From NCBI GenBank assembly GCA_965226795.1, contig CBDDDZ010000005.1:384001-448000 (forward strand): DNA of 64,000 nucleotides, in the 5' to 3' direction. Source of the stretch: Candidatus Latescibacterota bacterium (GTDB lineage Bacteria > Latescibacterota > UBA2968 > GCA-2709665). Each line of letters starts with the position of its first letter. Position 1 is the stretch's first letter. Below, piece by piece: positions 28,158-60,419 of the stretch. The position numbers and the translations under genes were made by a program. The notes under the pieces were generated by a model. It saw nothing but the letters and a program-made list of their open reading frames with translations. It was not told the DNA's origin and did not search any database.

Positions 28158-28377
28158 TCCTTTTTCTTGTACGCCCAAGAAAAAGGACCAAAAAGAACGG
28201 CGCCTGCCTGCCGAGCACGGCTCGGCGCAGGCAGGCCGCTCGGCGCGGGGCCGGTTTTTCCACGAATCTCGTCTGTGGCGTAGACTAGCGATTGTGCCCT
28301 ATGTACGCATGCCGACGCCCGTAGCTTCGGTGCTGAACGGAATAGCGTGGAAAACCCCCCCACTCCACCACCGGGCG
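28158..28377 (-). repeat. Structured dispersed element, subtype A, copy A1 (contains nested hairpin 28203-28235)
   Basis: Aligns by eye with the copies at 34.1, 47.5 and 56.4 kb. The 62-nt cassette is at 28272-28333. Confidence 0.85.
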
Positions 28378-28443
28378 TACGGGAGGGAAAACGAGGGAAC
28401 GCAAATCCGTCCACCCGGATTGGGCGGGCGACGTATGCCACGC

Positions 28444-28586
28444 GAGGACGCAAACCCTCCCGCGCCGCGTTTTTGTTCGTAGGGGCAACCCTTGTAGTCG
28501 CCCTCTCAAAGGCGCAGATATCGACCATTGATATCGCCAGGCCATATCGCTATCCGGTTCAAGCTGACTGCCTAAGGCTGACCGCC
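28444..28586 (+). repeat. Repeat module D (GTAG-REP, conserved linker, GCTGAC heptamers)
   Basis: Similar to 47821-47967, 56975-57126, 59820-59916 and 60826-60912. Confidence 0.7.
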
Positions 28587-28604
28587 AATTACTGTTCGCG
28601 TTCA

Positions 28605-28854
28605 GGTAGCCACACTGTTGTCTAACGCAATGCCTATCGAGAGCGCCACCAGAGCAGAGCGCGTGGTTCCGTCCAGCGCCGGGGATCGGTTTTCTTTAAG
28701 AGCTCGTAGGGCAGCGGCTGAAGTGCGACTCGTGCGGCAATTCGCGCTATGCATATGGCAGGCCCCGCGCCAGCGGCGACTTTTGGTTCCTTTTGGTCGC
28801 TTCAAAAGGAACCCGCCGGAGGCAGGGAATTTGGGGAGAGGTTACGAATTTGGA
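28605..28854 (+). repeat. Structured dispersed element, subtype B, copy B1
   Basis: Near-identical to 60169-60419 except in the cassette 28676-28735. Confidence 0.9.
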
Positions 28855-28888
28855 CCGAGTGCTGGACGAATTCCGTGAATGGACGCAG

Positions 28889-28916
28889 GTAGGGGCGGTT
28901 CGCGAACCGCCCCTAC
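28889..28916. repeat. GTAG-type REP, perfect 28-bp palindrome
   Basis: GTAGGGGCGGTTCGCGAACCGCCCCTAC. Confidence 0.85.
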
Positions 28917-28961
28917 AAAGACACTGTCGGTGTAAACATCCTTTTCCATCTGGATTCTATT

Positions 28962-30779
28962 ATGAAATCTGAAAATGTGGTTTCCATTGCCGTCCTGCTC
29001 CTGCTGAATCTCGTCGGATGTACGCCCGAGGAGACGGTGACCGTGTCTGGCGCGGTGAGCCGGCCTGGAGACGTGGCGTTTCGCCCTGGATGGGGTGTGC
29101 ACAACTATGTAACGGCCGCCGGAGGATATCTGGCCGAGGCGGATACGGGCCGCGTCGCTCTGGTTCGGGAGATGGCGGATAGCGTCCTTGTCGGGCAACG
29201 GGGAAGTTTCCGCAGATGGATGATTGAGGACGTGTCTGCCGTGATGGCAGGCGACATGATCAGTGTCCCGCTGAAGGCATATCGGGTCCGGTTCGATACG
29301 GTGCTGGCGGTGAGGAATCTGGAACAGAATTGGAAGGACCACATCTACCGTATGGAGCGTGGAAAGGTTGCGCTGGGCACGACACTGCGGGGGGTCGTGG
29401 CGGCGGTGTTCTTCGGGAATGGCGAGGTAATCAAGCAGACTTCCGGTACAGCAGCCGGCCCGTTTCAATACCTCTATCTCACAATGCATCCGGACAGATC
29501 CGGCGTCCTGCTTCCGGCGCTCAGAGAGCCGGTCTCGGATCTGGAGGCGCAGGAGGACGCGGCATGTCCTTTATCCGGATGGCAGGGTGGAGATCGAGGT
29601 GCAGGGCGGCGTGCGGGAGACGCGGTATCCCGATGGAAGTGTCTTCGCATTAACGCACGAGGGGCACCGGATCACGGTCTTCAAGGACGGCCGGCAGTTT
29701 ACGAAAATGAACGATGGTACCACGATTGAACAGTATCCGGATGGGCGAAAGATCCAGAAACATCCTTCCGGCGAGACGCTGGAGGTTTTCGCGGATCGAT
29801 CCAGGCGCATTGTGTATCCGGACGGCTCGGAAACGGTACGCCGCCCTGATGGCGTGCGCGTCGCAAGGCTCGCGGATGGGACCGTGATTGAGGAGTTCCC
29901 GGACGGCAGGATTGTGTACAGACCGATACGTCGGGAGTGCGGCTTGAGGTCCTTTCTCCTGATCGATATGTAATTACGGACGGGGATGGCAACCGCGTTG
30001 AGGCGCGTCCCGATGGAACATCTCAATGGTAATTGGCAGAACCCTATCGGTACCGCGGTTCGATACGGCCCGACCTGATCCGGCTGGAGCGCGCGCCGGA
30101 ACGCATCTCTCCGGGTATGGTTGCGTTCGTCCGGGGATCGGTGGAGGATGCCGTGAAGAAGATGTCGATGTCGGTGTTCGCGCTTCCGGACGGGGACGTC
30201 CAGGATATGGAGATCCTGCTTGACGCGGGGCAATTCGAGGGGACGTTGCAAGTAGGGGAGCCCGGGTATTATCGGTTGCAGATCCAGTGCGAGATGGAAA
30301 ACGGCGATGCTTTAGTGGCGGAAGATCGCATGTTGAAAGTTGGCAACCCGAAGCCTCTCGAGGCGCCTGTAATCGAGGTCGCGCCCTTTCCCGGCGACGC
30401 GGCCGCGGGCCGGCGCCTGATGGAGTCGGTGAACCATGTGCGCGGCAGGAAGAGCCGCATGTTGTTGGAGTGGGACGACGACCTGGTCTACGCGGCCGCG
30501 TCACATTTGCAGAACATGCTGGCGTACGGTTCGGTTTCGCACTGGTCGCCTATGTATGGAGACCTGGTAAATCGTTTGGAACGGCTGGGCATTTCGTTTG
30601 AGGTCGCGCTGGAGAACCTGGCGATGGCGCCCTCGCCGGAGGAAGCGCACTGGCACCTGATGTTGAGCGCCGAACACAGGCGCAATATTCTTGACGAGCG
30701 CTTAACCCATATCGGCGTCGCAGTGGCGAGCGAGCGGGGCCAGGTGTGGGTGGTGGAAATCTTCAAGCGGAGAGAATAG
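28962..30779 (+). pseudogene. Fragmented lipoprotein gene: SLBB domain, (Y/F)PDG beta-hairpin repeats, CAP/SCP domain
   Basis: Lipobox LVGC and SLBB-like VTVSGAVSRPG. Frame changes at ~29560 and ~29913. TAA at 30030-30032 is in frame with the CAP ORF (ENLA, S.EHR.NIL, T.IGV.V). Confidence 0.7.
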
Positions 30780-30809
30780 GCGGAACCACGTGCGGAAACC
30801 TGCTCATTG

Positions 30810-31226
30810 TTGAAGGTGTACCCTGAAGACAAGGACGCATTGCTGTTCGTCGGGTTGGGCTAACACGTCAGCGGATATCTGGATAATGCATGACATTTTT
30901 ACGTCCGGGCGCTGGCGGAGACCGCAGGAAAAGTGCGTTTGCGGGTCTGAGCGGTCCGGGAAGACGGTCCTGCCGAATATCATGTCAGATACATTCCCTC
31001 GGTGAGAAATAGAGTTTCATGGTCGATCCGAAATTTCGACAGGAATACGGGCGAAACAGCGGTGACCGTGCAGTACGAAGGAGACCGGACCGATGATTTC
31101 ACCTATCTTCAAATCGATCTGTAAAGGGTACCCGTGGGCATCCACGAACTGACGGTGAAGATGCAGGATCTGAACAGTGATGGAAAGGGCAACGAACGGC
31201 GCGTGTTGTTCCGCGTGATCGAATGA
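30810..31226 (+). pseudogene. Internally deleted remnant of a paralog of the downstream GWxTD gene
   Basis: YPEDKDALLFVGLG*...HFYVRAL and QYEGDRTDDFTYLQIDL*RVPVGIHELTVK...LFRVIE* match two segments of the 31606-33924 protein. Confidence 0.85.
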
Positions 31227-31605
31227 AGCCGGGAGCACGGCGGGCTATTTCGGAGCATGCATGGTCACAATAGATGCTTCGAGGTGCGTGTGAGGCAAAC
31301 GCGAAGAAATGAAGGGAAGTTGAACGGATAACACGGGCGTGTGCAGACGGGTTTTGTGACATTGCAGGTAAGGGTCCGGAAAGAACATCTTCCGGGCCTT
31401 TCTTTCTTTTACTGAACCGGTTCCGTCTGTTTGGTGTCTTTAGGCGTGGAAGGGCGTCGGGGATGCTCACATGAGTAAGTCTGGATGAACGACTCCATGC
31501 CCGGTTGCTCCGATATCCTTTGTCGCCAAGGAACATGAAGAATTATCGGTTCCGGGTCGCACGCTGCACCCAAAGGTCACCATTGCAAGCTCCGGAGGTT
31601 TCGAC

Positions 31606-33924
31606 ATGTCGGTCCTGCGAGGACAGGAAATACTACGATGCCGCACATGGTTGACTTTGTTAGTTCCGACCCTTTTGGGTCTTGCGTTCGCCTTCACAAC
31701 GGTACTGGCAGCCAGCAAACCGCAGCATGCGGAAAGTCTTTATCAAATTGCGTTGGCGCGCGTGGAGAGCATTTCTGTAAAGGAGAACCTCGAGGCCTTC
31801 GGTGACGTATTGAATGTGGATCGGAACCATGCACCGGCTCACTATGAGATGGCGAAGTTGTATATGTCGATGGATACGCCGTTGGGTCGCCAGAGCGCAC
31901 GCAAGGCGCTGGATGAGGCGATTCGGCTGGATCCCGGCAACGGGGATTATCAGCTGATGCTAGGGGAGATACTCGGCAAGCAGGGACTGTGGTTGAAGGC
32001 GGAACGACATTACGAAAAGGTATGTGAGACGCATCCGGAAAAGCGGGCCCAGGCGGCGTATATGGTAGGCTTCTTTGCCATGCAAGCGTTCTTTAAATAT
32101 ATCGATATGGAGCATATCGATATATTAGGTGGGCCGGGTGGTTCGACATACCACCTGTTTCGATGGGAGAAATACGGCACGCACGACCGTGAGAAAGCAC
32201 TGATGTTCTTGATAAAGAGCATCGAGGCCGATCCTGGATTTCGAGACGCCTATTACGATTTGGGGCTGATCCATTATGAGAGCAAGAACCCCAAAGGATT
32301 GGTGACGGCATCAAAGCTATGTTTGGAACAATATCCCGATGATAAGGATGCGCTGCTTTATTGTGGACTGGGATACCAGGGGATGGGTGAATGGGAAACT
32401 GCCCATGAGTATTATATACGCGCGTTGGAGCGAATGTCGGCGGAGGAACGCGCGCTGATGGAGTCCGTGGACCTGATTGCAAGCCAGGAGGAACAATCGG
32501 TACTTGATTCGATTGCGACGACCGATACGACCCGAATCGGATCGCCGGACCACGGTGAACGAATGCGGTTTTGGCGGAAGCGTGATCCGCTGTATCTGAC
32601 GGTATTCAGTGAGCGTCAGATGGAGCACTACGGGCGTGTGGCGTATGCCAATCTTCGATATGGGCAGCGATTGAAAGGGAAACCGGGATGGAAAACTGAC
32701 CGGGGGAAAGCGCATATCAAATTCGGGCGGTTTCTCAGCAAAACGGCAACACGGCTGGAGTTACCCGGAGGTGCTGGTGGGGCGGACACACGGATTAGCA
32801 GAGTCGTTCAGGGTGGTAATGAGGAATGGTACTATGAAGGATTTTCAATCTCGTTTGTCAACAGCGACGGTCTGGATGCGTGGCGTTTCGACACCCGGCC
32901 GGGTAGGACATCGGCTCGATATACGTTCAATCATCAACCGACTCACTTTATGGACCCCTATCGTCATTACAAATACAGAATCCCATACCACGTGGCAAGC
33001 TTCAAGGATGGGGACAGCGTCCGCGTGGAACTGGCGTATGCGCTACCGAAGTACAACGTGTCTGCCTCGGATGCAGACAGTGGCTTTGTCTTGGAAAACG
33101 GAGTATTTCTGTTTGACGAGGACTGGGACGAGGTGTATCGGAAGCGGTCGGATCTCAACCTGAGGTGGCCTGAGTTAACGCCCAGCGGGTATCCTGCTGC
33201 GGACAGCCTGCGCAATAGTCATCTGGTGTTTCAGTTGGCATTCAGGGTGGCCCCCGGCACGTACCATCTGGTTGGCGAGGTTCGGGACAGGAAGCACGGG
33301 TCGATCGGGATGTTCCGCGAGGAGCGTGGTTTTGCGACTTTGGACTCTTCCCTGTCGATGAGCGATTTGCTGCTGGCCACGCAGATTGAAACTGGATCGC
33401 CGTTTCCGGAGAAAAGAAGCCACCTCAACGTCGTGGCGAATCCGCTGCGGACCTATCATCGGTCCGAACCTGCGTTCATCTATCTGGAGGTGTATAACCT
33501 GAAGCGAGATGAATACGGGCGCACGGAGTATGAGATCTCCTATCGGATCGGCCGGCCCGGGGAAGAGGAGATCGATCCGTACCTGTTCGTGGCGCAGCGG
33601 TTGCCAGGGGATGGCGATGCATCGGCAGCTGCACAGGTGATTATGACCCGCAACGAGAAATTAGAGGTGATGCGAGTTAACGAGGTTCTGGACCGGGAAG
33701 AAGACGAAATCGGGGACTGGATCAAAGAAACAGGAGGGAACCGGCAGGGCACGGAGACGGCAATTACAAGTCGTTATGAGGGCTCTCGTGGGGATGACTT
33801 CACGTATTTGCAGATTGACGTGCGCCACGTGCCCGTGGGTGTGCACCGGTTATCGGTGCGGGTGAAAGACATGCATACCCGCCAGATGGCAACGAGGGAG
33901 GAATTATTCCGTGTAGTTGAGTGA
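31606..33924 (+). CDS. Exported TPR and GWxTD domain protein
   Basis: Hydrophobic signal-like segment, TPR repeats, FW...DP, R..YAN, GWKTDRG. Confidence 0.85.
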   Translation: MSVLRGQEILRCRTWLTLLVPTLLGLAFAFTTVLAASKPQHAESLYQIALARVESISVKENLEAFGDVLNVDRNHAPAHYEMAKLYMSMDTPLGRQSARKALDEAIRLDPGNGDYQLMLGEILGKQGLWLKAERHYEKVCETHPEKRAQAAYMVGFFAMQAFFKYIDMEHIDILGGPGGSTYHLFRWEKYGTHDREKALMFLIKSIEADPGFRDAYYDLGLIHYESKNPKGLVTASKLCLEQYPDDKDALLYCGLGYQGMGEWETAHEYYIRALERMSAEERALMESVDLIASQEEQSVLDSIATTDTTRIGSPDHGERMRFWRKRDPLYLTVFSERQMEHYGRVAYANLRYGQRLKGKPGWKTDRGKAHIKFGRFLSKTATRLELPGGAGGADTRISRVVQGGNEEWYYEGFSISFVNSDGLDAWRFDTRPGRTSARYTFNHQPTHFMDPYRHYKYRIPYHVASFKDGDSVRVELAYALPKYNVSASDADSGFVLENGVFLFDEDWDEVYRKRSDLNLRWPELTPSGYPAADSLRNSHLVFQLAFRVAPGTYHLVGEVRDRKHGSIGMFREERGFATLDSSLSMSDLLLATQIETGSPFPEKRSHLNVVANPLRTYHRSEPAFIYLEVYNLKRDEYGRTEYEISYRIGRPGEEEIDPYLFVAQRLPGDGDASAAAQVIMTRNEKLEVMRVNEVLDREEDEIGDWIKETGGNRQGTETAITSRYEGSRGDDFTYLQIDVRHVPVGVHRLSVRVKDMHTRQMATREELFRVVE

Positions 33925-34111
33925 AAGTGGAAACACCTTGTGAAAGTGGCCCGAAGGCAGCAAATAACCGTCGGCGATCGTCCCGCCCATCCATGCCAAT
34001 GCAGAAACGTGAGACTTTGTGGCTGTCGCAAATTGCAACGTTAGCTCTCAGCAGACAGCAAATTGCGGGTCGACGCCGTACCACCCGGCGTTCCTTTCCT
34101 ATATTTCTCAC

Positions 34112-34302
34112 GCCCGCCCGGTTGTAGGGGGGGACTTTTCCGCGTTTTTCCGTCCAGAAATACGGCTCATCAACGCCCTCGATATTGTCAGGCCATCAAC
34201 TCAAGTTTATGCCCCTGAGGCGATTCGCGGAAAAGCAGCCCCGCGGCGTTTAAGCGGCGCCGTTCTTTTTGGTCCTTTTTCTTTGGCGAGAAAGAAAAAG
34301 GA
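34112..34302 (+). repeat. Structured dispersed element, subtype A, copy A2
   Basis: TTTTCCGCG...TCCGTCCA-[34157-34218]-GGCGATT-CGCGGAAAA...terminal T/A hairpin. Confidence 0.85.
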
Positions 34303-34353
34303 TATAAAAAAAGAAAAAATAAGAATTTATTTAGAAATATGTGGTTATCCGCT

Positions 34354-35157
34354 TCATTCGAGGCGGATGACGTCACTGGGCACTCTTAGCTCGAACCGGC
34401 GATCCGGAACGCCAGCGTTTATTGTACGGCTGGCAACCTGAATCAGGATCCTGTCGTTTCCCTGGATCATCTCCATCCTGCCGGGAAGAACCACGCCGTT
34501 TTGCCGCCGGTATTCCGATAGGAGTCGGCGAGATATCAATGCCCCGTCGGGCGTGTATACCCGTTCTTCCAGCAGGACGGCGGCGCGGGGGTCAAATCGA
34601 AGGCGGCGTGTCCAGAGCGGTTCGATGATTTCCACGGTGAGGCTGTCCCGGTGTGACGCGAATTCGCCGACGCGAGGTAAATTGAGTGGGGAGAGGTTGA
34701 CGAGGCCAAGCAACGCGTGCCGAACGCCGTAAGGCGCGAGATCGACGCCCGTGATGGCACGCAGCACGTCTTCCGAAGGTCCTTCCAGGTAGTGGTTGGT
34801 CCTGGGCAGATAGACGGCCATGGTGTCCCCCTGCGCGCGGGCAGACAGCACGCCGATGCCGAGCAGGGCATGTTTAATCTCGATCTTCAGTTCGTCGGGC
34901 GATCGATAGAAGAGTACGGCGAACCCCTTTTGTTTGACGCCGTCTATACGCATGTTGATTCCGGCGCGGATTTCCAGATCCACAAGGCTGTCGGCGCGTG
35001 AGGATACAATGCGCAGCAGGTCGTCCGGGGTTGGAACCGGCCCGACGTCCGGGAGGCGTGAAAGAGTTGCGGCGCAGCCGGGAAGCAACAGGAGAAGGAA
35101 ATAAAGGAAAGGTGTTGGGGTGAGGGAGCGCGTTCCGGACCGCTGACGGCATGCCAT
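34354..35157 (-). CDS. Lipoprotein, LolB/DUF4292-like
   Basis: Lipobox LLLPGC, beta-rich sequence, C-terminal N..VP...F...P, and position downstream of a TPR lipoprotein. Confidence 0.6.
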   Translation of the reverse strand: MACRQRSGTRSLTPTPFLYFLLLLLPGCAATLSRLPDVGPVPTPDDLLRIVSSRADSLVDLEIRAGINMRIDGVKQKGFAVLFYRSPDELKIEIKHALLGIGVLSARAQGDTMAVYLPRTNHYLEGPSEDVLRAITGVDLAPYGVRHALLGLVNLSPLNLPRVGEFASHRDSLTVEIIEPLWTRRLRFDPRAAVLLEERVYTPDGALISRRLLSEYRRQNGVVLPGRMEMIQGNDRILIQVASRTINAGVPDRRFELRVPSDVIRLE

Positions 35158-35158
35158 T

Positions 35159-37069: not shown

Positions 37070-37155
37070 ATTTTACGCTGTAAACCGGGAAGAATGGGGG
37101 ACGGACAGGCAAAGCAACCGCCTGTGAAGAGATTCTGAAGCTTTTACGATCCGGA

Positions 37156-38568
37156 TTAAAAAAAGTTGCCCGCTCGTTTCTCAAGGAGCAGCTTGCCGGT
37201 TTCGTTCTCGATGGGGATCGGATAGTCTTGCGTGAAACAGGCGGTGCAATACTGGAGAGACGAGTTAGGGGCCACGCTGAGCATGCCGTCCAGTGAGAGA
37301 TAACCCAGACTGTCGACGCCCAGGTGTTCGCGGATCTGTTCCACGGTTTTCGCGCTGGCGATCAGTTCCTTCTCGGTCTGAAAGTCAATTCCGTAAAAGC
37401 AGGGACCGACAATTGGCGGGCAGCTTACACGTACATGAACCTGGCGGGCGCCCGCTTCCCGCAACATTCGAACCAGATGTCTAAGTGTTGTGCCTCGGAC
37501 AATTGAATCTTCCACGACAACCACCCGTTTTCCGTTCAGAACACCCCTGACGGGGTTGAATTTGAGGCGAACCTTGGACGATCGACTGTCCTGTCCGGGT
37601 GTAATAAAGGTGCGCCCTACATAGTGGTTCCGTATAAGGCCGATCTCGTGTTTGATGCCGGATTGATTGGCATATCCCAGCGTCGCGGTATTGCTGGAGT
37701 CCGGCACGGATATCACGATGTCCGCGGCGGCAGGCTGTTCAATGGCGAGTTGTCTGCCGAGCCGGCGCCGGGTCTTGTCGACGTTGTCGCTGAAGATGAT
37801 GCTGTCGGGCCGTGAGAAGTAAATGTATTCGAAGATGCAGAACGCGTGGCGATCCGCTTTCGCGGTCGTGAAGGCGCGGAGACCGTGCGCGTCTATCATG
37901 ATAAGTTCGCCGGGTTCGATGTCGCGAATATAACGTGCTGAGATGATGTCCAGCGCGCATGATTCGGAGGCGACAATCCAGGCATCGCCGAGTTTCCCCA
38001 GGCACAACGGACGGAATCCGAAGGGATCGCGGGCGGCGAACAGCTGGCTTTCCGTCGCCAGGACGAGCGAATACGCGCCCTCGATCTGCCGCAAAGCGTC
38101 CGTAATGCGATCGACCATTTTTTCTTCTCTGCACCTGGCGACGAGATGGAGAATCAGTTCGCTGTCGGTTGTCGTCTGGAAGATGGAGCCGTCGTTCTGC
38201 ATCCGGCTTCGGAGCACGGCTGTATTGGTAAGGTTGCCGTTGTGCGCGACGGCGACAAAGGCGTCCCGGCATTCCGCCAGAAAGGGTTGGGCGTTGGCGA
38301 GGGTGTCGGATCCGGTGGTGGAATACCGGTTGTGTCCGATGGCAAGATGACCCGGCAGCCGGTCCAATACACCTTCGCCGGAGAACACATCGGCCACGTG
38401 CCCCATTGCGGTGTGGCGAAACACGTATTCACCGTTGCCGGAAACGATGCCGCTGCTCTCCTCACCCCGGTGCTGCAGGGCATGCAGGCCCAGCGTGGTG
38501 AGTTTCGCCGCATCTCCATTCCCGTAAATGCCGAAGATGCCGCAAAAGTGTTTGACACTCTGGTCCAT
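37156..38568 (-). CDS. purF: Amidophosphoribosyltransferase
   Basis: Short propeptide then CGIFG, LQHRG, HNRYSTTG, HNGN, VEDSIVRGTT, YCTACF. Confidence 0.97.
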   Translation of the reverse strand: MDQSVKHFCGIFGIYGNGDAAKLTTLGLHALQHRGEESSGIVSGNGEYVFRHTAMGHVADVFSGEGVLDRLPGHLAIGHNRYSTTGSDTLANAQPFLAECRDAFVAVAHNGNLTNTAVLRSRMQNDGSIFQTTTDSELILHLVARCREEKMVDRITDALRQIEGAYSLVLATESQLFAARDPFGFRPLCLGKLGDAWIVASESCALDIISARYIRDIEPGELIMIDAHGLRAFTTAKADRHAFCIFEYIYFSRPDSIIFSDNVDKTRRRLGRQLAIEQPAAADIVISVPDSSNTATLGYANQSGIKHEIGLIRNHYVGRTFITPGQDSRSSKVRLKFNPVRGVLNGKRVVVVEDSIVRGTTLRHLVRMLREAGARQVHVRVSCPPIVGPCFYGIDFQTEKELIASAKTVEQIREHLGVDSLGYLSLDGMLSVAPNSSLQYCTACFTQDYPIPIENETGKLLLEKRAGNFF

Positions 38569-38773
38569 CGGCCCTCCTGTCGGGGGTTTGCAGGTTGATT
38601 GTGCCGGGATAAATCGTCAAGTAGCTGTTTTTAAATCTCCTGGTGCGTTCCCGCGCGCGCGGGGCGCAGCGTTGTCGTTCGGAACCCGGACAGTGGACGA
38701 CACAGGGCTCTCGTCTTACGCTGGGCAGACCGGCAAACCGTATCCGGACACCAGCGAACGCCCGCCTGTAACG

Positions 38774-47406: not shown

Positions 47407-47503
47407 AGAGGCCAAATCTTTAAATGGTGATCCGGTGGAGTAAAGGATTAATGGTGGAAGGCAATTTTCCCACCCCACCTCTTCCCTTTTATTCTTTTTT
47501 TAC

Positions 47504-47685
47504 GCCCTTTTTCTTTCTCGCCAAAGAAAAAGGGCCAAAAAGAACGGCGCCGATCGGCGCGGGGCCGGTTTTTCCACAAATTACTTCAAGGGAAAACACC
47601 AGCAACGGTGGCCTGCTGGCCACCCGGCCGCTCCAGCGCTGCGTTGCGGGACGGAATAACGCGGAAAAACCCCCCACTGCACCGT
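47504..47685 (-). repeat. Structured dispersed element, subtype A, copy A3
   Basis: Same scaffold, cassette 47586-47647, no nested hairpin. Confidence 0.85.
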
Positions 47686-50958: not shown

Positions 50959-53619
50959 CTATTCGATGGCGGCCTGAGCGGCGGCCAGGCGGGCGATAGG
51001 CACCCGGTACGGAGAGCAGGAGACGTAGTCCAGGCCCACCCGGTGGCAGAATTTAACCGATTCAGGGTCGCCGCCATGCTCGCCGCAAATGCCCACTTTG
51101 AGGGTTTTTCGCGTGGAGCGTCCGCGGTCGGTTCCGATGATTACAAGCTGTCCCACGCCGACCTGGTCGAGGCTCTGGAAGGGGTCCTGTTCGAGAATAC
51201 CCTGTTTGATGTATTCAGGCAGGAATTTTCCGGCGTCGTCGCGGGAGAAACCGAATGTCATCTGGGTGAGGTCGTTGGTACCAAAGCTGAAGAATTCGGC
51301 CGATTCCGCAATGGTGTCCGCCACCAGTGCCGCCCGGGGAATTTCGACCATAGTGCCGACGAGATAGTCTATCCTGGCCTTGCCGCCGCCCATTACCTCA
51401 TTGGCGACACGGTCCACGATTTTACGAAGCTCGGTGAATTCCTTGACCGTGCCGACCAGGGGTATCATGATTTCGGGGATGGCCTTGATTCTCCGTTTGC
51501 GCGCGTTTACGGCCGCTTCGAAAATTGCCCGTGCCTGCATTTCGTAGATCTCGGGGAAGGTAACGCCCAGGCGGCAGCCCCGATGCCCCAGCATGGGGTT
51601 GAACTCGTGCAGATTATCCACTTTCTCCTGGATGGTCTTTAGCGTGACCCCCATCTGACGCGCCATTTCGCGCTGCTGTTCGGGCTCGTGGGGCAGGAAC
51701 TCGTGCAGGGGCGGGTCGAGCAGCCGGATCGTGACGGGCAGGCCCCGCATGGCCTTGAAAATGCCCTCGAAGTCGCCGCGCTGCATGGGCAGGAGTTTTT
51801 CCAGCGCCTTTCTGCGGCCCGATTCGTCGCCTGCAAGGATCATCTCACGTACGGCCAGGATACGGTCGCCTTCAAAAAACATGTGTTCCGTCCGGCACAG
51901 ACCGATGCCCTCGGCGCCGAACTTCCGCGCGATATCCGAATCGTGCGGCGTATCCGCGTTGGTGCGCACGTTCAGCTTCCGCATCTCGTCCGCCCATTTC
52001 ATGATGGTGGCGAAATTGGCGGAAAGTTTCGGATTCCGGGTGGGCACGCGGCCGAGCATCACTTCGCCCCTGGAACCGTCCAGTGAAATCCAGTCCCCGG
52101 CCTTAACCGTCTTTCCGTTGACGGTAAACAGGTCGTTCTTGTAGTCGATCGCGATGGCGCCACAGCCGGCCACGCAACATTTTCCCATGCCCCGCGCCAC
52201 GACGGCGGCGTGGCTGGTCTGGCCGCCGCGTGCGGTTAGAATGCCGTTAGCGGCGTGCATGCCGCCGATATCTTCGGGCGAGGTTTCGAGGCGAACCAGG
52301 ATGACTTCTTCGCCGTCGGCCGCTAACGTCTCGGCTTCGTCGGCTGTGAACACCGCCTTGCCGGCGGCGGCGCCGGGCGAAGCAGGAAGCCCGGACGCCA
52401 GAACCTCGCGGGGCGCGTCGGGGTCGAACGTGGGGTGCAGGAGATGGTCGAGTTGGGCCGGATCGATGCGGGCGATTGCTTCTTCCTTGGTGATGAGGCC
52501 CTCTTTCACCATATCTACCGCTATTTTGAGCGCGGACGCGGCGGTGCGCTTGCCGGTTCGGGTCTGCAACATCCAGAGTTCACCTTCCTGAACAGTAAAC
52601 TCGATGTCCTGCATGTCCCGGTAGTGCAATTCCAGTTTCTTGTAAATTTGCTCCAGAGTTTCGTAGGCCTGGGGCAGCTGTCTTTTCATTTTCGCGACCG
52701 GTTCCGGCGTGCGAACCCCGGCCACGACGTCTTCGCCCTGGGCGTTGATGAGGTATTCACCGTAAAACTTCCGCGCACCGGTCGATGGGTCGCGGGTGAA
52801 CGCTACACCCGTAGCGCAGTCGTCGCCCATATTGCCGTAGACCATGGATTGAACATTAACGGCGGTTCCCCAACTATGGGGTATGTCGTGGATGTTTCGA
52901 TAGACGATCGCCCGATGTCCGTTCCAGGAATCGAAAACGGCGCTCACGCCTCCCCACAGTTGTTCCATCGGGCTCTCCGGAAAAGAACGGCCAGCGCGTT
53001 TCGTGACGAGGTCCTTGAAAACGTCCACGAGTTCCCGAAGATCATTGGTTGTGAGGTCGGTATCCAGTGTAATGCCCCGCCTGGCCTTTACCCTGTCGAT
53101 GGCGGATTCGAAGGGATCGTGTTCGCGTTCTTCGGGCTGCACGCCCATCACAACGTCGCCGTATGTCTGAATGAAGCGTCGGTACACGTCCCAGACAAAG
53201 CGCTCATTGCCGGATTTTGCAATCAGCCCCTCGGCAATCTCGTCGTTGAGGCCCAGGTTAAGGACGGTCTCCATCATTCCGGGCATGGAGACACGCGCGC
53301 CCGACCGGACCGACAAAAGAAGCGGATTGCCTGCGTCGCCGAAACGCCCACCCATGGCTTTCTCAACGTTTCTCAGGTTCGATACAACCTGGCTCTCCAG
53401 CGCCGGAGGGTGATTTTTCTCGTGGCCGTAGTAGTAGGCGCAAACGTCCGTGGTAATGGTGAACCCTGCGGGAACCGGAATGCCGATGCGAGACATTTCT
53501 GCCAGGTTGGCGCCTTTGCCACCTAGCAGATTGCGTCTGTCACCGTCGCCGTCGGCCGTGCCATTGCCGAAGAAATAGACGTATTTTTCAGTTTTCGAAA
53601 TCCGGTTCGACATGTTCAT
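50959..53619 (-). CDS. ppdK: Pyruvate, phosphate dikinase
   Basis: GGKGANLAEM, GGQTSHAAVVAR, SFGTNDLTQ. Confidence 0.98.
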   Translation of the reverse strand: MNMSNRISKTEKYVYFFGNGTADGDGDRRNLLGGKGANLAEMSRIGIPVPAGFTITTDVCAYYYGHEKNHPPALESQVVSNLRNVEKAMGGRFGDAGNPLLLSVRSGARVSMPGMMETVLNLGLNDEIAEGLIAKSGNERFVWDVYRRFIQTYGDVVMGVQPEEREHDPFESAIDRVKARRGITLDTDLTTNDLRELVDVFKDLVTKRAGRSFPESPMEQLWGGVSAVFDSWNGHRAIVYRNIHDIPHSWGTAVNVQSMVYGNMGDDCATGVAFTRDPSTGARKFYGEYLINAQGEDVVAGVRTPEPVAKMKRQLPQAYETLEQIYKKLELHYRDMQDIEFTVQEGELWMLQTRTGKRTAASALKIAVDMVKEGLITKEEAIARIDPAQLDHLLHPTFDPDAPREVLASGLPASPGAAAGKAVFTADEAETLAADGEEVILVRLETSPEDIGGMHAANGILTARGGQTSHAAVVARGMGKCCVAGCGAIAIDYKNDLFTVNGKTVKAGDWISLDGSRGEVMLGRVPTRNPKLSANFATIMKWADEMRKLNVRTNADTPHDSDIARKFGAEGIGLCRTEHMFFEGDRILAVREMILAGDESGRRKALEKLLPMQRGDFEGIFKAMRGLPVTIRLLDPPLHEFLPHEPEQQREMARQMGVTLKTIQEKVDNLHEFNPMLGHRGCRLGVTFPEIYEMQARAIFEAAVNARKRRIKAIPEIMIPLVGTVKEFTELRKIVDRVANEVMGGGKARIDYLVGTMVEIPRAALVADTIAESAEFFSFGTNDLTQMTFGFSRDDAGKFLPEYIKQGILEQDPFQSLDQVGVGQLVIIGTDRGRSTRKTLKVGICGEHGGDPESVKFCHRVGLDYVSCSPYRVPIARLAAAQAAIE

Positions 53620-53633
53620 CCTCGTCGTGAATG

Positions 53634-54869
53634 TTAGGGATTCCGCTCCGCCGCCGTTCCCCGGCCTGAATCAGCCGGAGTGGTGCTCCTGGATGACGTC
53701 GTGATCACTGTATCGGATGCGGTTTGACGGGACGGGGAAGGTTGTGTTTCGCCAAGTCCGCGTGGATCACGGAGTTCCTGGCGACTGGCCTGGACCACAT
53801 CGCGGTCATCGATATTCAGAAGGGTTTTGAGGATGCTTCGCCTGCCCACAATAATGCGCAGGTCTGCCGTGGAGCCGTATTTGAGTCGTAGCGGGGTTTC
53901 CACAATGCGAATTTCCAACTCAAAGGTGCGGACGCCGCCACCGTGCACCGCATACCCGTAAAACCTGGAGATTTCGCCGGCGCCGATGAATTTCTCGCGG
54001 TCCGTAAAGAGATTGCTCAGGATTTCGACGGGGTGGCCCAGCCGGACCTTCCAGGCGTTGGTTTCCGGGACCCATGCTTCGATGGTATCGTCCCCGCCTT
54101 CACCGGCGATGATGAGTACGATCTGACCCTGTTCGGCCAGCATGCCGGGATGCAGGTCTCGCCTGGCCACAGTGCCGTTTACCGGCGACCGAAGGGTGGT
54201 CAGTTCGAGGCTTTCCCTCGCCGCCTTCAAAGCGTTTCGTGCTTTGTCCAGCGCGGCGCCGGCGCGGCGAACCTCGGCCGCCGCCTGTCTGAGTTCCGCG
54301 GGCGACGCGCCACGCCGGGTGAGGTTGAGAATCTCGGTTACGACTTTCAGATTGGTTTCCGCGAGTTGATAGTTGGTTTTTGCGCGTTCGAGTTCCTCGA
54401 CGCTCCAGAGGCGCTCGCCCAGGTAGAGGTGTTCGGCCCTCTGCATTTCCTGCTTGCGAGCCTTCAGTGCGATCCGTGCATGTTCGAGCCTGGATTCCGC
54501 AATTTTCAACGCTTCCGGAGTAGGTTTTTCTTTCTGCAGCGCCAGATTCGCCCGGGCGTGTTCCAGGTTGGCTTCGCTGCGCTGGACTTCCTTTTCGGCC
54601 TCTTCGACGGCGGCAAGGAGGTCGCCGCTGTAGAGTTGGACAACCGCCTGCCCGGCTTTGACCGGCGTTCCGGCCTCGCAATGAATGGCTTTAATGACCC
54701 GCTTGAGCGGTGAATCGATATAGATTTTTTCCCCGGGCTCGACAATGCCCTGGGCCATGACCACGTCGTCAATCTCGATAAAAGCCAGGGTAAGTATTAC
54801 AGCCGCCAGCAAACCCGAAATCCACAGCACCCACTTTAACACGCGGTGCCTGCGTCGCCTGCGCATCAT
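53634..54869 (-). CDS. HlyD-family membrane fusion (periplasmic adaptor) protein
   Basis: N-terminal TM helix, lipoyl-like half motifs (G..VKAGQ; LRSPVNGTV) flanking a coiled coil. Confidence 0.8.
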   Translation of the reverse strand: MMRRRRRHRVLKWVLWISGLLAAVILTLAFIEIDDVVMAQGIVEPGEKIYIDSPLKRVIKAIHCEAGTPVKAGQAVVQLYSGDLLAAVEEAEKEVQRSEANLEHARANLALQKEKPTPEALKIAESRLEHARIALKARKQEMQRAEHLYLGERLWSVEELERAKTNYQLAETNLKVVTEILNLTRRGASPAELRQAAAEVRRAGAALDKARNALKAARESLELTTLRSPVNGTVARRDLHPGMLAEQGQIVLIIAGEGGDDTIEAWVPETNAWKVRLGHPVEILSNLFTDREKFIGAGEISRFYGYAVHGGGVRTFELEIRIVETPLRLKYGSTADLRIIVGRRSILKTLLNIDDRDVVQASRQELRDPRGLGETQPSPSRQTASDTVITTSSRSTTPADSGRGTAAERNP

Positions 54870-54886
54870 TACGGAAACCCTTTTGC

Positions 54887-54915
54887 TTGACAGCGGAGAA
54901 CGGCTTGTCTATATT
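54887..54915 (+). promoter_or_regulatory. Sigma70-type promoter for tRNA-Lys
   Basis: TTGACA-17 bp-TATATT. Confidence 0.7.
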
Positions 54916-54969
54916 GATCACTTTGCCCGATCACGCACCGGTTTTCGAGGTTTGATCCGGGAACGGAAT

Positions 54970-55041
54970 GGGCCCGTAGCTCAGGGGTAGAGCAGCGGCC
55001 TTTTAAGCCGTTGGTCGAAGGTTCAAATCCTTCCGGGCTCA
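54970..55041 (+). tRNA. tRNA-Lys(UUU), CCA not encoded
   Basis: Acceptor stem GGGCCCG/CGGGCTC, D arm TAGCTCAG..GGTAGAGC, anticodon loop CTTTTAA, T loop GGTTCAAATCC. Confidence 0.95.
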
Positions 55042-55079
55042 TTTAACTTTTTCAAAATAAAATACTTGCATTATAAAAT

Positions 55080-55109
55080 GGCCCGGATCGAAACAGATCG
55101 GGCTTTTTT
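55080..55109 (+). terminator. Terminator after tRNA-Lys
   Basis: GGCCCG.GATC-GAAACA-GATCGGGC followed by TTTTTT. Confidence 0.65.
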
Positions 55110-55285
55110 GTTACTTACATCGAATGGTTCCACGATGACGCGAAACGCCAGCGATTTTGGAGTCTTTTAAGTTATCATATCCCATGTTAAAAGTCAAGGC
55201 GATTCAACTCTCCAATTGCGCGGGTACTGACGATCTCCGTCCAATCAGCCGGCTCTCCGGACTATCGGAATTTTGCATTAATGAC

Positions 55286-55335
55286 TTGACAAGGCGCAAT
55301 GACTTTATTATTGTTGACTAACTTGATCAACAATA
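55286..55335 (+). promoter_or_regulatory. cysH promoter with overlapping palindromic operator
   Basis: TTGACA(55286)-17-TATTGT. Inverted repeat TATTGTTGA-N9-TCAACAATA at 55309-55335. Confidence 0.65.
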
Positions 55336-55363
55336 TAGTAAAATAAGCCAGTAGAGGATGTGC

Positions 55364-56113
55364 ATGGATTTCGACCAGCAGAAGATTGGCCGGTTGGCCG
55401 ATGCATTGGAGGGGGCGCCGCCCGAGGAAATCCTGGAGTGGGCCTGGCGAGACCTGGGTCCCGCAGTCGCGATGAGTACGGCATTCGGGGCCAGTGGTGT
55501 GGTTCTCGTGGAAATGGCGCAGAGGGTGGTCCCGCAACTTCCTTTTTTTACAATCGACACCGGGTATCTGTTTCCTGAAACACTTGCGCTCAAAACGCGT
55601 ATCGAGGCGCGGTACGATATTGAGATTCAGTCCTTACGCCCCCGCTTGAGCGTACCCGAGCAGGATCGCGTCTGCGGCCCCGATCTGTACAACCGGGATC
55701 CGGGTCGATGCTGCCGGATGCGCAAGGTGGAACCGCTGCAGCGCAAATTGGCAATCCTGAACGGCTGGATTGCAGGTCTTCGGAGAGATCAGTCCGGAAC
55801 GAGGGCGGGTGTACGCGTCGTGGAAGGATACCGAACCAGCGGCGGTCGGGACGTCACCAAGATAAATCCGCTTGCCGCCTGGACGCGGAAGCAGGTGTGG
55901 GATTACATCATTGAAAATGATCTGCCGTACAATTCGCTCATGGACCAGGGCTATTCAAGCATCGGCTGTTGGCCCTGCACCCGGCCGGCAGCGCCCGGCG
56001 CCGACGAACGCGCGGGCCGCTGGGCGGGCACGTCCAAATCGGAATGCGGCATGCACGTACCGTTGATAGAGGTCGAAATACCGGAAGCGGAGGGGCAACT
56101 GGCGGCGGGATAA
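55364..56113 (+). CDS. cysH: APS/PAPS reductase, Fe-S (APS) type
   Basis: DTGYLFPET, CC..RKVEPL, GLRRDQS, SIGCWPCT, ECGMH. Confidence 0.93.
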   Translation: MDFDQQKIGRLADALEGAPPEEILEWAWRDLGPAVAMSTAFGASGVVLVEMAQRVVPQLPFFTIDTGYLFPETLALKTRIEARYDIEIQSLRPRLSVPEQDRVCGPDLYNRDPGRCCRMRKVEPLQRKLAILNGWIAGLRRDQSGTRAGVRVVEGYRTSGGRDVTKINPLAAWTRKQVWDYIIENDLPYNSLMDQGYSSIGCWPCTRPAAPGADERAGRWAGTSKSECGMHVPLIEVEIPEAEGQLAAG

Positions 56114-56218
56114 TCGGAGCTGAATAGACAACGGTACCGGACAGACCTGATCTTCATTGGCGGAAGCCCTACAAGCTTCCGCCTTTGTATTTCGTCCGGC
56201 GAACCCGCTTTTGGATCT

Positions 56219-56243
56219 GTAGGGGCAACCCTTGTGGTTGCCC
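56219..56243 (+). repeat. GTAG-type REP
   Basis: GTAGGGGCAACCCTTGTGGTTGCCC, identical at 59840-59864. Variants at 28479, 47859, 57013 and 57131. Confidence 0.85.
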
Positions 56244-56354
56244 ACGGTATGGCGAGGATCTCGCTGGTTTCCATGGGCAGTCCGTAATACCATCTACTTT
56301 AGCATGAACGCTGAAGCTTGTTGCCAACTAAGCTATTATTTTGTCTTTTTTTAC

Positions 56355-56570
56355 GCCCTTTTTCTTTCTCGCCAAAGAAAAAGGGCCAAAAAGAACGGCG
56401 CCTGCCTGCCGAGCACGACTCGGCGCAGGCAGGCCGCTCGGCGTGGGGCCGGTTTTTCCGCGAATCGCCTAACTGGTGAATACAGGCGCCTGTGCCCTGC
56501 GTGCAAGTCAGGTGTACGAGTAACATGGTGGTGGACGGATTAACGCGGAAAAACCCCCCTCACCCCCGGA
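56355..56570 (-). repeat. Structured dispersed element, subtype A, copy A4 (nested hairpin 56401-56433)
   Basis: Cassette at 56470-56531. Confidence 0.85.
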
Positions 56571-56677
56571 AGCGCGAGGGATGGAGCGCGAAGAATCCGC
56601 CTCCGCCCGCGCAGCGGGTGACCTGTTGGCCGGCGGTTTATCGGGACAACAGGGGACGCCTGGTTCTGGCGTTCGAG

Positions 56678-56848
56678 GCTGATGGTGAGCGGCGCGATTG
56701 TTGCCGCGAACAAACCCCCCACTCCGCCACCGGTCGCATGGGGGATAAATCACAGCATGGGGCGCTTAGTGTTGGTGTTCCAGGTTGCTGGTGAGCGGCG
56801 CGATTCTTGCGGCGAACAGGCCCCCCACTCCACTACCGAGCGGGGGGC
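56678..56848 (+). repeat. Repeat module C, two tandem copies (third copy at 59728-59790)
   Basis: TGGTGAGCGGCGCG(A/G)TTnTTGCnnCGAACA..CCCC. Confidence 0.75.
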
Positions 56849-56974
56849 CTGTTTTCTCGCGCAGTACCGCCGTATGGATTGACGGTCGTACCGCTTTTTC
56901 CCTGTCTGATGCCCGATTGGTTAAACTCCCTCTCTCCTCACAGGTGAGGGGGCCGGGGGAGATGTCCCCGGGAC

Positions 56975-57155
56975 CGAGGGCTTCCAGCCCTCGACGCGCC
57001 GTTGTTGCATTTGCAGGGGCACTCTCAGAGTTGCCCACATAACGGCGCAGACTTCGCTGATTAACATCGCGGGTCCGTATCGCTGCCGGTGTTAGCTGAT
57101 TGCTGTAAACTGACTGCTGATCGCTGCTTTGTAGGGGCAACTTTCAAAGTTACCC
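56975..57155 (+). repeat. Repeat module D plus an additional REP
   Basis: Closely matches 47821-47967. Confidence 0.8.
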
Positions 57156-57363
57156 GCATATTGGCATTGCGGGAGACTTACATTCGGTGAGCATCTTATG
57201 GGGAATTGAGAGCTTGGTGCGGAAGGGTGCCGACTATGTTTTCGAGTGCGTTCAGCGGACAGAATAGAGAACGCCGATAGGGATCAGACGCAAGAATCTC
57301 GACAGGCAGGATGGCTGCTTCTACGATATAAACGTGTACAATCACAGTCCGGACAAGATAGAG

Positions 57364-59413
57364 CTAACTGTCGAAGTTCGTTCCGAAGGCCCTCGAGAAA
57401 ATCAGAAAGTCTGAAAAGCCAACCTCGGCATCCTCATCCAGATCGAACGAGGGATCGAAATTCTCGTCGGCTGAGGACAGGCCGAACGCTTTCGCAAATG
57501 CAATGAAATCCGGGAACGCGACCGTCCCGTCGCGGTCGAAGTCGGGAGAAGGCGGTTTCCCTTCTACGACGGTCAATTTATAGTAATGAAACATAAAGAA
57601 CCCACCACCACCCGGGAAATCAGCACCCTTAAAGTCCTGCTGTGCCCCCACATTGAGCAAATATTCTCCGATTTCTCCCCGGGCAAAAAAGATGTTTCTA
57701 CTGAATCGCCCGTTCGTGACCGGTGCTCGCAAGATTTTCTCGTGTTCGTCGTTATAGATATGAAATTTGACTTCAATAGAAAAGGACGAATCGGACACGG
57801 TGCCACTGATCCAGATGGCCTGCCTGGTGCTGACTTGGAGAGGTAGTGGAGGGTGTAAGGTAATACGGGGCGGATAACCCGCCGGCAGATCAAGACGCGG
57901 AGAATAATCCTTCGGGATGGGAATAAACTGGGCGCGAATTTTGCCGTTTGGATCGGCATGAATGGTCAGTGTTGTCGGGCTTCGATCTCCCATAACGACG
58001 TATATAGGTCGAAGATAGTTGGTGAATCACCCCACTGACGGTGACTGCGCCGAAAGAGTCCGGTTTGACGGCCCATTGGTCGTGGTTGTGTTGATACCCA
58101 CCCTCAGGCCAAAGCACATATTCCATGGGGAGCGGGAAGGCTCGACCTTGCGAAATGTTGTTTACGAGAGGAGCTGTCGTATAATTGAGCCTGGGGTTGA
58201 GGCCCAGCCCACTCAAAAACAACCTCGATACGTGCCGCTCGAAGATGTCTACGATTGGGCTACCGGTTGCATTCTCGATATTTGCAACTCCAGATTTACT
58301 TGTTTGTACCAGCCGTGTCACAATTCCCGAGCCAAATTCCTCAATGAGACTGCGTATGAACATGTAGGCGGCGCCTCGTCTCGCTTGTTCCGGAGAAGAC
58401 GGTGCACCAAGGGCTCCCCTCTCCGTATTCCGGAAGAAGACATCGACATCCAGGCGCTTGCTTCTGCTAAACTCACCGATCAGATCTTCAGCGACATGAG
58501 ATAACCCTTCATTGAGCCATGTTTCTTCCGATTGCCCGTTACGTAGCAACACGTGTTGATTGAAGCTGATGAGATGTTGAAACTCATGGGCAATCACGGG
58601 ATCGAAGTCGTTGGGCTTAAGATCTGGATTGACGTAGAACATATCCGATCGATTTCCATTGCCTCCCTGGCGCGCGGGCAGAAGCGCCAGGGCATCGAAA
58701 ATACCCCATGCACCTGCGAAAAGAACGTTGGGGTCAGGATCCGTCAGGTGGGTGTAGAGGAAATGGACTCTGCCATCGTTATCTACGTCTGATTCACTTC
58801 CGAATGCGGATGTGATTTTGGGATAGGTCTTTGTACTGAAGCGGTCGACTTGTGCCTGGATCTGCTCCTTGCTCACTCTGCTGGTATCGGCCACGTCCAC
58901 ATAGGCATTTGCCCGCTGGCTCGTCGCATAGAGGACGGCTGTAATTGTGGTATCTTCCTCGATAATCCAGCAAGCATAGCCAGGAAAGACAAAATCTCGG
59001 GTACTGCCGATTTGTTGGGATACAATCTTCGCTGCCGGTGCGTGATAACCACCGGACTGTTGAAGGCGGCCCGCAAGTCCGCGTTCTTGGTTTCGCAGCG
59101 TGGCTTCTAGACTGGCGCTGTTCGGGAGGTTTGTTGGCCGTCTTGCCCCGTCAAAATGCACCATTGCCGGTTCCGAATCGCCAAAGGCGGCAGTTTCGGA
59201 GAAGCCGAACGGATGGCCAATTCCAAATCCACTGGTTTCCACGTCAGTCTGTGTGGAATAGACGATCAACTGATAGTCGCGGTCTGAAAAATCCAGTGTC
59301 AATGTGGTTGAACCTTCAGCGAGATCGACCTTGAAGGGTTCGCCGATTTCCTGAGCGAAAAGCGGCTGAAAGCAGATCAATAACAAGAACAAAGAACTAG
59401 CAAGGTATCTCAT
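57364..59413 (-). pseudogene. Frameshifted exported zinc metallopeptidase-like gene (HEFQH) with C-terminal EF-hand/dockerin-like repeats
   Basis: Signal peptide and HEFQH...WLNEGLS. A frame change near 57990 joins it to an ORF ending PDFDRDGTVAFPDF...FDLDEDAEVGFSDF. Confidence 0.7.
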
Positions 59414-59727
59414 TCTGAGCCTCGACTCACGATGTAGACCGACCTCACCTTTGAATGCGGATATGCATGGTGTCCCACAAGTGACTAAGATAGTTCGCCT
59501 GGCGTGTCGGGCCAAGTATATTTTTCGCGCATTAGTTGGACTCATAGTAAGAATGTAGCCTCCCGGCGTCCAATGCCCTGTGATCTGCGTGGTCAGATTT
59601 TGGGAAGTCCATCTGGCTCAGAACGCCGGTTGCCACGAGCGGTTTGAACTGGATGTTGGGCTGCCAGTTGATCTTAGCGCAGAAAGTCCGGATTTCATGT
59701 CAGACGCCTCAGGTGTCGCCGTTCTAT

Positions 59728-59962
59728 GCTGATGGTGAGCGGCGCGGTTTTTGCCACGAACAAACCCCTATCACCACAACCGGGCGGGCGACTGGAGTAC
59801 CCATGAAGCCGCAAGCCATTGCGCGCCGCGTTTGTGTTTGTAGGGGCAACCCTTGTGGTTGCCCACATAACGGCGCAGACTTCGCCAATTGACATCGCGG
59901 GCCCGTATCGCTGACTCTACGCCGAACGAAATCTGTAGGGGCGACCGGCCGGTCGCCCCTAC
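59728..59962 (+). repeat. Module C, module D and a perfect REP palindrome
   Basis: GTAGGGGCGACCGGCCGGTCGCCCCTAC at 59935-59962. Confidence 0.75.
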
Positions 59963-60168
59963 CCCAATCGGACGAAACGCCCCGATGATGTCGAAGAGGC
60001 TCTGTAGCCGGTGTAGGGCTAATCAGAGTCGCACGCGTCGCATTGTGCGACACATTGGAACGAGGGCGTATCTTCCGCTCAATTGTCGGACAATATAGCC
60101 AAAGATTCTCGCGGGTTCTGTGCTGTATGTTCACGCTGACCGCTAATCGCTATTCGCACCTTTATCAA

Positions 60169-60419
60169 AGGAAACCACGCCGGTATCTAACGTGATGCCT
60201 TTCGAGAGGACTTCCAGAGCAGAGCGCGCAGTTCCGTCCATCTCCAAGTACGGGTATGCGCCTTCGTTGTCAGGGCAGCAGGTCATGTGCGACCCGTGAG
60301 GCAATTCGCGCTGTGCATATGGCAGGCCCCGCGCCCAGCGGCGACTTTTGGTTCCTTTTGGTCGCTTCAAAAGGAACCCGCCGGAGGCAGGGAATTTGGG
60401 GAGAGGTTGCGAATTTGGA
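60169..60419 (+). repeat. Structured dispersed element, subtype B, copy B2
   Basis: Cassette at 60241-60299; flanks near-identical to B1. Confidence 0.9.

Follow-up and report, generated by a model that had tools for sequence, protein, structure and literature searches.

Why would a bacterial repeat keep the length of its central loop while the sequence of that loop varies? The question is raised by six non-coding elements in a stretch of 64,000 nucleotides (nt) of Candidatus Latescibacterota bacterium DNA (GenBank assembly GCA_965226795.1, contig CBDDDZ010000005.1, positions 384,001 to 448,000 of the forward strand; hereafter the window), in each of which two variable cassettes, V1 and V2, are set between three short anchors. 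A preliminary description of the window had read this as a guide- or cargo-carrying RNA or single-stranded DNA, or else as a ruler-type protein-binding element. All six are members of an order-wide family of non-coding repeats with a covarying stem, a predicted unpaired loop of fixed length and a 3' module shared with the TwoAYGGAY repeats (RF01731). With moderate confidence, we consider them copies of a non-autonomous mobile element: an enzyme encoded elsewhere would recognise its stem and tail as a folded single strand.

Six copies of an order-wide repeat

Upon re-reading of the sequence, all six cassettes were located, four of type A (A1 to A4) and two of type B (B1 and B2). Anchors, anchor variants, lengths and covarying stems agree with the preliminary description, as does the GT located 9 nt after the AGGSCA anchor in all six copies. 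V1, the middle anchor and V2 measure 33+6+23 nt in A1 to A4, 32+6+22 nt in B1 and 31+6+22 nt in B2. V1 had been called largely unrelated between copies, which is true among these six (7-14 of 33 positions identical between pairs of A1 to A4) and not true genome-wide, where V1 identity has a mean of 45% for A copies and 53-56% for B copies and grades continuously up to identical pairs. Using profiles built from 21 A and 13 B copies, full-length copies score 120-240 bits, far beyond chance.

The element is also longer than first described, as it includes a 3' terminal hairpin module and, in B, a fixed-length 5' extension. A copy consists of a 5' region, the basal stem, the loop (N4, anchor, V1, anchor, V2, anchor), the returning stem strand, a small GC hairpin, a T-run, a large T/A-rich terminal hairpin and an end module. 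A1 and B1 form a back-to-back doublet. The features in the window are:

24880..24938, plus strand: remnant of a B-type 3' end, without stem or cassette
28145..28371, minus strand: A1 element; basal stem 28346-28355/28255-28264, cassette 28272-28333, optional inserted hairpin 28202-28236, terminal hairpin 28157-28193
28374..28594, no strand: spacer of the divergent A1/B1 doublet; GTAG-type REP-like palindrome 28479-28503, and short degenerate GCTGA-type repeats upstream of B1
28595..28855, plus strand: B1 element; fixed-length 5' extension from about 28595, basal stem 28654-28663/28743-28752, cassette 28676-28735, terminal hairpin 28781-28811, end hairpin at 28814
34122..34315, plus strand: A2 element, solo; cassette 34157-34218, terminal hairpin 34267-34303
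47492..47684, minus strand: A3 element, solo; cassette 47586-47647, terminal hairpin 47504-47540
56344..56567, minus strand: A4 element; cassette 56470-56531, optional hairpin 56400-56434, terminal hairpin 56355-56391
56568..57130, minus strand: mosaic 5' region of A4; repeated head motifs, then decayed head-like units, palindromes and short tandem repeats, modules that recur at other loci
60160..60428, plus strand: B2 element; 5' extension, basal stem 60219-60228/60307-60316, cassette 60241-60299, terminal hairpin 60346-60376

In the 5.41 Mb genome that holds the window (G000), the profile search gave 83 A and 37 B matches above threshold. Of the 37 B matches, 32 have a back-to-back A partner no more than 600 bp away, and 25 of the 26 two-copy loci are divergent A/B pairs; a further 53 loci have a single copy. 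Copies thin out near the skew switch that marks the likely terminus, and so do the GTAG-type REP words, 49 out of 129 of which lie within 500 bp of an element, in a space that makes up 2% of the genome. The word GCTGA occurs 0.77 times per 200 bp before B copies, compared to 0.12 before A copies and 0.23 in the genome. Based on crude open reading frame (ORF) calls, no preferred orientation relative to the next ORF was found, for which reason a riboswitch or other cis-regulator was rejected.

A covariance model matches 47 of 121 genomes of the phylum. Within the order's two families, the model (R1) matches 12/12 and 28/29 genomes, against 0/41 in family f3; some of its weak matches cover only the tail, and those in the distant genomes G054, G057, G069, G078 and G120 are putative. 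The family occurs across one Latescibacterota order. A metagenome scan gave at least 120 loci of an estimated 210, with 36 passing the stem test and 29 of these 36 looking like true copies by eye, and the window sequence itself is present in sequencing runs including sponge metagenomes. The G+C content of V1 follows lineage (0.58 here versus 0.47-0.49 in other sets). In low-copy genomes, the copies adjoin ordinary genes.

In a further relative (G013), doublets of A and B are repeated at high density (C1:1546000-1570000; L031, L032) and their cassettes were amplified recently; one pair encloses a membrane pyrophosphatase-like gene as judged by eye. Sites resembling attC, at which an integron integrase would shuffle neighbouring genes, are a most improbable explanation of the family. 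A folded single-strand substrate with a variable loop would suit this reading, and the neighbours include variable glycosyltransferase-like and paralogous genes, as grouped by similarity clusters alone. However, the elements are dispersed in both orientations, often beside core genes, the dense G013 clusters are doublet arrays rather than one gene per site, and loop length is fixed here, whereas attC loops vary in length.

In two lineages (L119:2150-2500; L138:1188-1350), a group II intron is inserted 5' of an element at a distance of about 130-150 bases, perhaps with the hairpin-rich islands as targets.

A covarying stem around a loop of fixed length

The enclosing stem, proposed to covary from six copies, does so among 146 non-redundant A copies, with 92-99% paired over ten positions; examples of pairs are CG 105, TA 30 and TG 7 at one position, and TA 86 and CG 43 at another. 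On the strand as read, G-T wobbles in the A stem exceed A-C mismatches (45 versus 17), an excess that favours this strand and does not separate RNA from single-stranded DNA. Within the loop, no pairing covariation was found, and V1 and V2 together fold no better than shuffles (mean z +0.29 as RNA and +0.16 as DNA, 107 copies).

The length of this loop is kept far beyond the window. Among 298 distinct loops from the genus, the order and metagenomes, 288 measure 78-82 nt; of 293 loops, 287 have a V1 of 31-34 nt and 283 a V2 of 22-24 nt. A parsimony count of net length changes per substitution gives 0.017 in A (n=181) and 0.023 in B (n=72), compared to 0.098 (304 indel events per 3096 substitutions) for intergenic DNA between G000 and its sister species G008. 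Length changes in the loop are therefore about five times rarer than intergenic indels, a gap that is approximate because recombination inflates the substitution count and compensating indels stay hidden. Together with the covarying stem, this bears out the view that ordinary decay does not account for the elements. Other unpaired segments also vary at fixed length, namely the B 5' extension (81 nt in 37/50) and an A-rich segment (42-45 nt in 14/20).

The ruler-type reading of the preliminary description fits both the length constraint and the stem covariation: the three short anchors at fixed spacing may be read by a protein, which would purge indels and tolerate substitutions. A hidden peptide was rejected as an explanation. 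One frame is low in stops (30 versus 47.8 +/- 4.1 of 93 in column shuffles), yet every loop length from 78 to 82 is found, and the genome as a whole is poor in TAG and TAA (0.42 and 0.73).

By a loose test, a full tail is present in 255/291 copies, so that most copies run past the T-run. About half of the 36 copies flagged as tail-less (A and B; e.g., L204, L212, L031 and L199) stop at the T-run, where they give way to degenerate 7-mer tandem repeats through junctions that differ. At the other end, tandem head motifs spaced 32-40 nt apart often precede A copies (L207:2340-2500; 56568-57130 in the window), each followed by a decayed head-like unit, which gives the look of a mini-array. Near position 629500 of G000 C3, two A tails are fused head to head at the terminal-hairpin loop, which suggests strand exchange at the palindrome.

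Diversity and exchange of the cassettes

As V1 and V2 have guide-like fixed lengths between constant anchors in an unstructured loop, and are stable within the species, they might direct a nuclease or recombinase to targets, as in IS110 bridge RNAs. Such a programmable guide or cargo carrier is nevertheless quite unlikely in view of the target searches. Against the host genome with elements masked, the best cassette match scored 34.2 bits, compared to 36.2 in shuffles. Among 40 permutation tests of cassettes against their own flanks (114 A and 45 B copies), the smallest p was 0.015 and none survives correction. Neither the A1/B1 doublet, compared with 50,697 phage records, nor two V1 24-mers, compared with IMG/VR, gave a match; the element is unmatched in plasmid and phage collections, and viral scans with the element core gave four matches, which is chance level; these tests are blind to very short guides or to targets in unsampled phages. 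The IS110 DEDD recombinase (PF01548) was not found in the genome, which is 95.9% complete, and the cassettes form a continuum with mosaicism instead of discrete acquisitions. CRISPR-like spacers were rejected, since the cassettes are a continuum of related sequences without host or phage match.

The elements do resemble IS110 bridge RNAs in having a constant scaffold with short motifs around variable sequence, and differ from them in that no IS110 gene was found, in the lack of target complementarity and in the lack of pairing inside the variable part. The same likeness holds for the non-coding RNA arrays of UG27 reverse transcriptases (RTs; 10.64898/2026.09.22.753630); unlike those, the elements are not arrayed beside an RT, and again show no pairing inside the variable part.

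V1 differences comprise all six substitution types (C/T 358, A/G 207, transversions 465). V1 distance is unrelated to that of the tail (rho 0.03) and weakly related to those of V2 (0.18) and the scaffold (0.28). Linkage among variable columns drops with distance (rho -0.20, p 0.001, 88 copies). In G013, one cassette is found in local bursts, the members of which share patches with neighbouring copies.

A comparison of filled and unfilled sites, as had been suggested, revealed both presence in one species only and replacement of the cassette at the same site. For 71 G008 copies, a subset picked by pattern and BLAST matches, a same-family copy is present at the projected G000 site in 31 cases, while the other 40 are without such a copy or a mappable flank. 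At these 31 orthologous sites, ten cassettes differ by at most one mismatch, three are 93-95% and three 78-86% identical, and 15 are at most 63% identical, having been replaced. At the A1 site, G013 keeps the tail and flank with a different cassette, and G008 is without the element. The B2 site of G008 holds another cassette with a 93% identical tail, and no copy of A2 was found in the corresponding G008 and G013 regions examined.

Among conspecific contigs, A1 and B2 are unchanged, B1 and A2 have one change each, and A4 is unchanged in one run with one additional base in another. Because of this stability at the species level and the retained-or-replaced pattern at orthologous sites, the cassettes are exchanged and do not hypermutate in place; hypermutation in place was rejected as conspecific cassettes are near-unchanged and retained orthologues almost identical. 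The earlier caveat that V1 might reflect fast substitution rather than acquisition is therefore half right: the continuum and the mosaics speak for substitution, but not for a fast process in place. The loop was likely diversified by ordinary mutation and in-register recombination between copies. Heads, cassettes and tails would be swapped between copies with crossovers in the scaffold, and ordinary mutation over the age of the order, combined with in-register recombination among about 100 copies, would yield a mosaic of fixed length.

A retro-mobile element, in which an error-prone RT acting in trans through an RNA intermediate would leave substitution-only diversity and degenerate 5-7-mer junction repeats, has a low probability in our view. 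It would account for the other unpaired segments that vary at fixed length and for truncations that cluster at the T-run and run into degenerate 7-mer repeats, and RT genes are present in the genome. Yet these RT matches resemble group II intron proteins or fragments and have no element nearby, there is no adenine-restricted spectrum, recent burst copies differ in patches shared with other copies rather than at scattered new sites, and most copies extend beyond the T-run. A target of a diversity-generating retroelement was rejected, as all six substitution types are common and no element lies near the RT matches.

Retained sites between G000 and G008 often show 97-100% identity over the entire intergenic island, against differences of 20% at fourfold sites and 12% in other intergenic DNA. 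In adjacent coding DNA, no gradient was observed near the near-identical islands (9.2% mismatch at 0-50 bp versus 7.8% further out), and co-transfer of flanking coding DNA with the islands was not seen. Such islands result either from lateral movement between co-resident species into the same site or from shielding against flank-replacing recombination, the latter being allowed because 44/660 coding windows are at least 98% identical.

The likeness of retained cassettes, which exceeds the neutral one (10/31 with at most one mismatch, compared to 26/257 control intergenic windows), could also point to a host-domesticated small-RNA family. In that case, an RNA of about 150 nt ending at the U-run would bind or sponge a protein with its fixed loop, as proposed for Csr/Rsm and TwoAYGGAY RNAs, and spread would be secondary. 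The wobble excess on the strand as read, the GC hairpin and T-run just after the stem, at which many truncated copies break, and the persistence of the family across the order all agree with this. RNA runs hold contigs over A1 and A4, but these contigs lack strand, ends and level and may be DNA, and so count neither for nor against transcription. We still rate the small-RNA reading as rather unlikely: the whole island, including REP words and tandem repeats, is equally alike, so the likeness is not cassette-specific; copies are freely gained, lost and replaced; and they show no orientation preference to the next gene. Moreover, the AYGGAY motif occurs in just 3/107 loops, and neither a sigma-70-like site nor a terminator call at the small hairpin was obtained for the A1/B1 doublet.

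A 3' module shared with TwoAYGGAY repeats

The preliminary description did not recognise a named family, and the Rfam searches agree. At the gathering thresholds and at E 5, a tRNA is the only match in the window, and the only matches over 14 loci were weak and unrelated, apart from a group II intron domain next to one copy. RF01731 has no match in the window and none in G000 at E 10 (150 of 251 candidates scored).

A profile made only of Latescibacterota tails (40 sequences; cut-off 10 bits) links the two families at their 3' ends. Thirty full-length RF01731 loci from eight Pseudomonas genomes were used as test loci, three of which are cut by contig ends. Downstream of 18 of the remaining 27, the profile scores at least 10 bits at a near-fixed place, compared to 0/28 upstream and 0/26 distant windows (0/54 controls). 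These loci were chosen by their AYGGAY hairpins and not by the tail, and are mutually related, so that they do not represent 18 independent tests. Between B2 and the locus L193, 31 of 38 letters are identical in this module. The elements thus fail RF01731 membership, yet the 3' module ties the family to TwoAYGGAY, a tie that is new here. No description of the family was found in the literature searched, and preprint supplements may bear on this novelty.

The extended TwoAYGGAY element of Pseudomonadota is probably the R200 repeat of Silby et al. (2009; PMC2718517), going by 47 versus 48 copies in SBW25. According to 10.64898/2026.09.22.753630, TwoAYGGAY elements form 68.4% divergent doublets, have 5' short repeats and REP linkage and reach up to 202 copies, with most positions highly conserved; their mobility is left unresolved there. 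The present family resembles them in several ways: besides the 3' terminal hairpin module at a fixed place (18/27 loci), both carry a payload inside a basal stem, vary widely in copy number, have no known mobiliser, form divergent doublets (25/26 here versus 68% there) and are co-located with REP sequences. The short degenerate repeats 5' of B may be a further likeness, GCTGA being a word outside the Pseudomonas set. Unlike TwoAYGGAY, the present elements are without AYGGAY hairpins, their payload is an unstructured, sequence-variable loop of fixed length, their doublets pair two different subfamilies, and their 5' parts are unmatched.

Tail scans of viral sequences gave 7 and 22 loci, many of which are Pseudomonas TwoAYGGAY elements, while others carry different payloads, with no recurring partner by eye. 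In viral contigs of other lineages, the tail pattern is found before unrelated structured payloads (L163, L164, L161, L162, L412). One plasmid carries a Pseudomonas element, with no transposase beside that element.

For the preferred reading, a non-autonomous mobile element, the tail and stem would be the cis-signals for mobility, and a folded single strand, DNA or RNA, would be handled by an enzyme encoded elsewhere; REP and IS200-type systems suggest, as an analogy, an enzyme of the HUH type as a first guess. Known non-autonomous repeats offer parallels. As described in PMC3337134, REPINs and BIMEs with RAYT are likewise non-autonomous, hairpin-forming and intergenic, with inverted pairs and mosaic clusters, and the elements here are depleted around the terminus together with REP words. 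The elements here are much longer and asymmetric, and none of 30 RAYT-like loci is flanked by them. With prokaryotic miniature inverted-repeat transposable elements (reviewed in PMC3184786), they share high copy number, presence or absence between species and the lack of coding capacity, but no terminal inverted repeats were seen in single elements here, the ends of which are ragged and modular.

In agreement with the preliminary description, no partner protein is evident in the window, where the neighbours of the elements are ordinary genes. Between A4 and B2 (57364-59545, minus strand), two ORFs of 551 and 209 aa are without Pfam match; by eye, the former has an HExxH-like motif and the latter an EF-hand/dockerin-like end, and they are possibly a single frameshifted secreted protein. 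A TPR gene at 31606-33924 (plus strand) has tandem paralogues that vary in number among relatives.

Beyond the window, ORFs within 900 bp of 264 copies were grouped into 275 clusters, of which 148 representatives were scanned after dropping long or plainly metabolic ones; 93 of the 148 have no family at E 1e-14. Mobile matches were an IS1380-type transposase (three loci in one genome), a group II RT, an IS256-type transposase and a DUF559 protein. Genes of the HUH/RAYT, IS110 and RT types, proposed as candidate partners, were looked for, and none was found consistently linked to the elements in these scans. The IS91 Y2 transposase (PF04986) occurs in 7/41 genomes, with G000 not among them. A RAYT-like gene of G000 (C2:153770-154525; L016:1771-2526) has its own, different palindromic repeats, and two 1200-aa methyltransferase-like ORFs beside it end in a similar Y1 domain.

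Several results count against a mobile element that is tied to TwoAYGGAY and measured by its enzyme. In the scan of 148 out of 275 neighbour clusters, no mobilising gene recurs beside the elements across lineages. The surroundings of 25 Y1, 30 RAYT-like, 10 IS91 and 6 RT loci are free of elements and tails, with one 10-bit partial match among the IS91 loci as the sole exception in these 71. The filled and empty sites (14 in all) gave no clean boundary or target duplication among those listed. Conservation has no helical periodicity (p 0.08-0.99 in 12 tests), which leaves a double-stranded ruler unsupported, and the additional base of A4, seen in a single conspecific contig, is an insertion within V1. 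Finally, convergence or a module that moves on its own could account for the shared tail, because 9/27 TwoAYGGAY loci score below 10 bits with the tail profile and the 5' bodies do not match TwoAYGGAY (best score 4 bits in 28 loci).

We tentatively raise the possibility that the family and TwoAYGGAY form one cross-phylum superfamily with a shared 3' hairpin signal, swapped stem payloads and one enzyme class, in which the enzyme would measure the loop and whole islands would pass between co-resident species by homing to the same sites.

For scans of other genomes, the family is a caution: a constant scaffold with variable cassettes of fixed length can come about with no acquisition of guides. 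The preprint 10.64898/2026.09.22.753630 calls it unresolved how repeats of the TwoAYGGAY type attain tens to hundreds of copies. A terminal module that is found across phyla with differing payloads points to a cis-signal and offers a bait for finding the enzyme. The Latescibacterota branch, in which loop length is kept and sequence is not, constrains how this enzyme or a bound protein reads its substrate.

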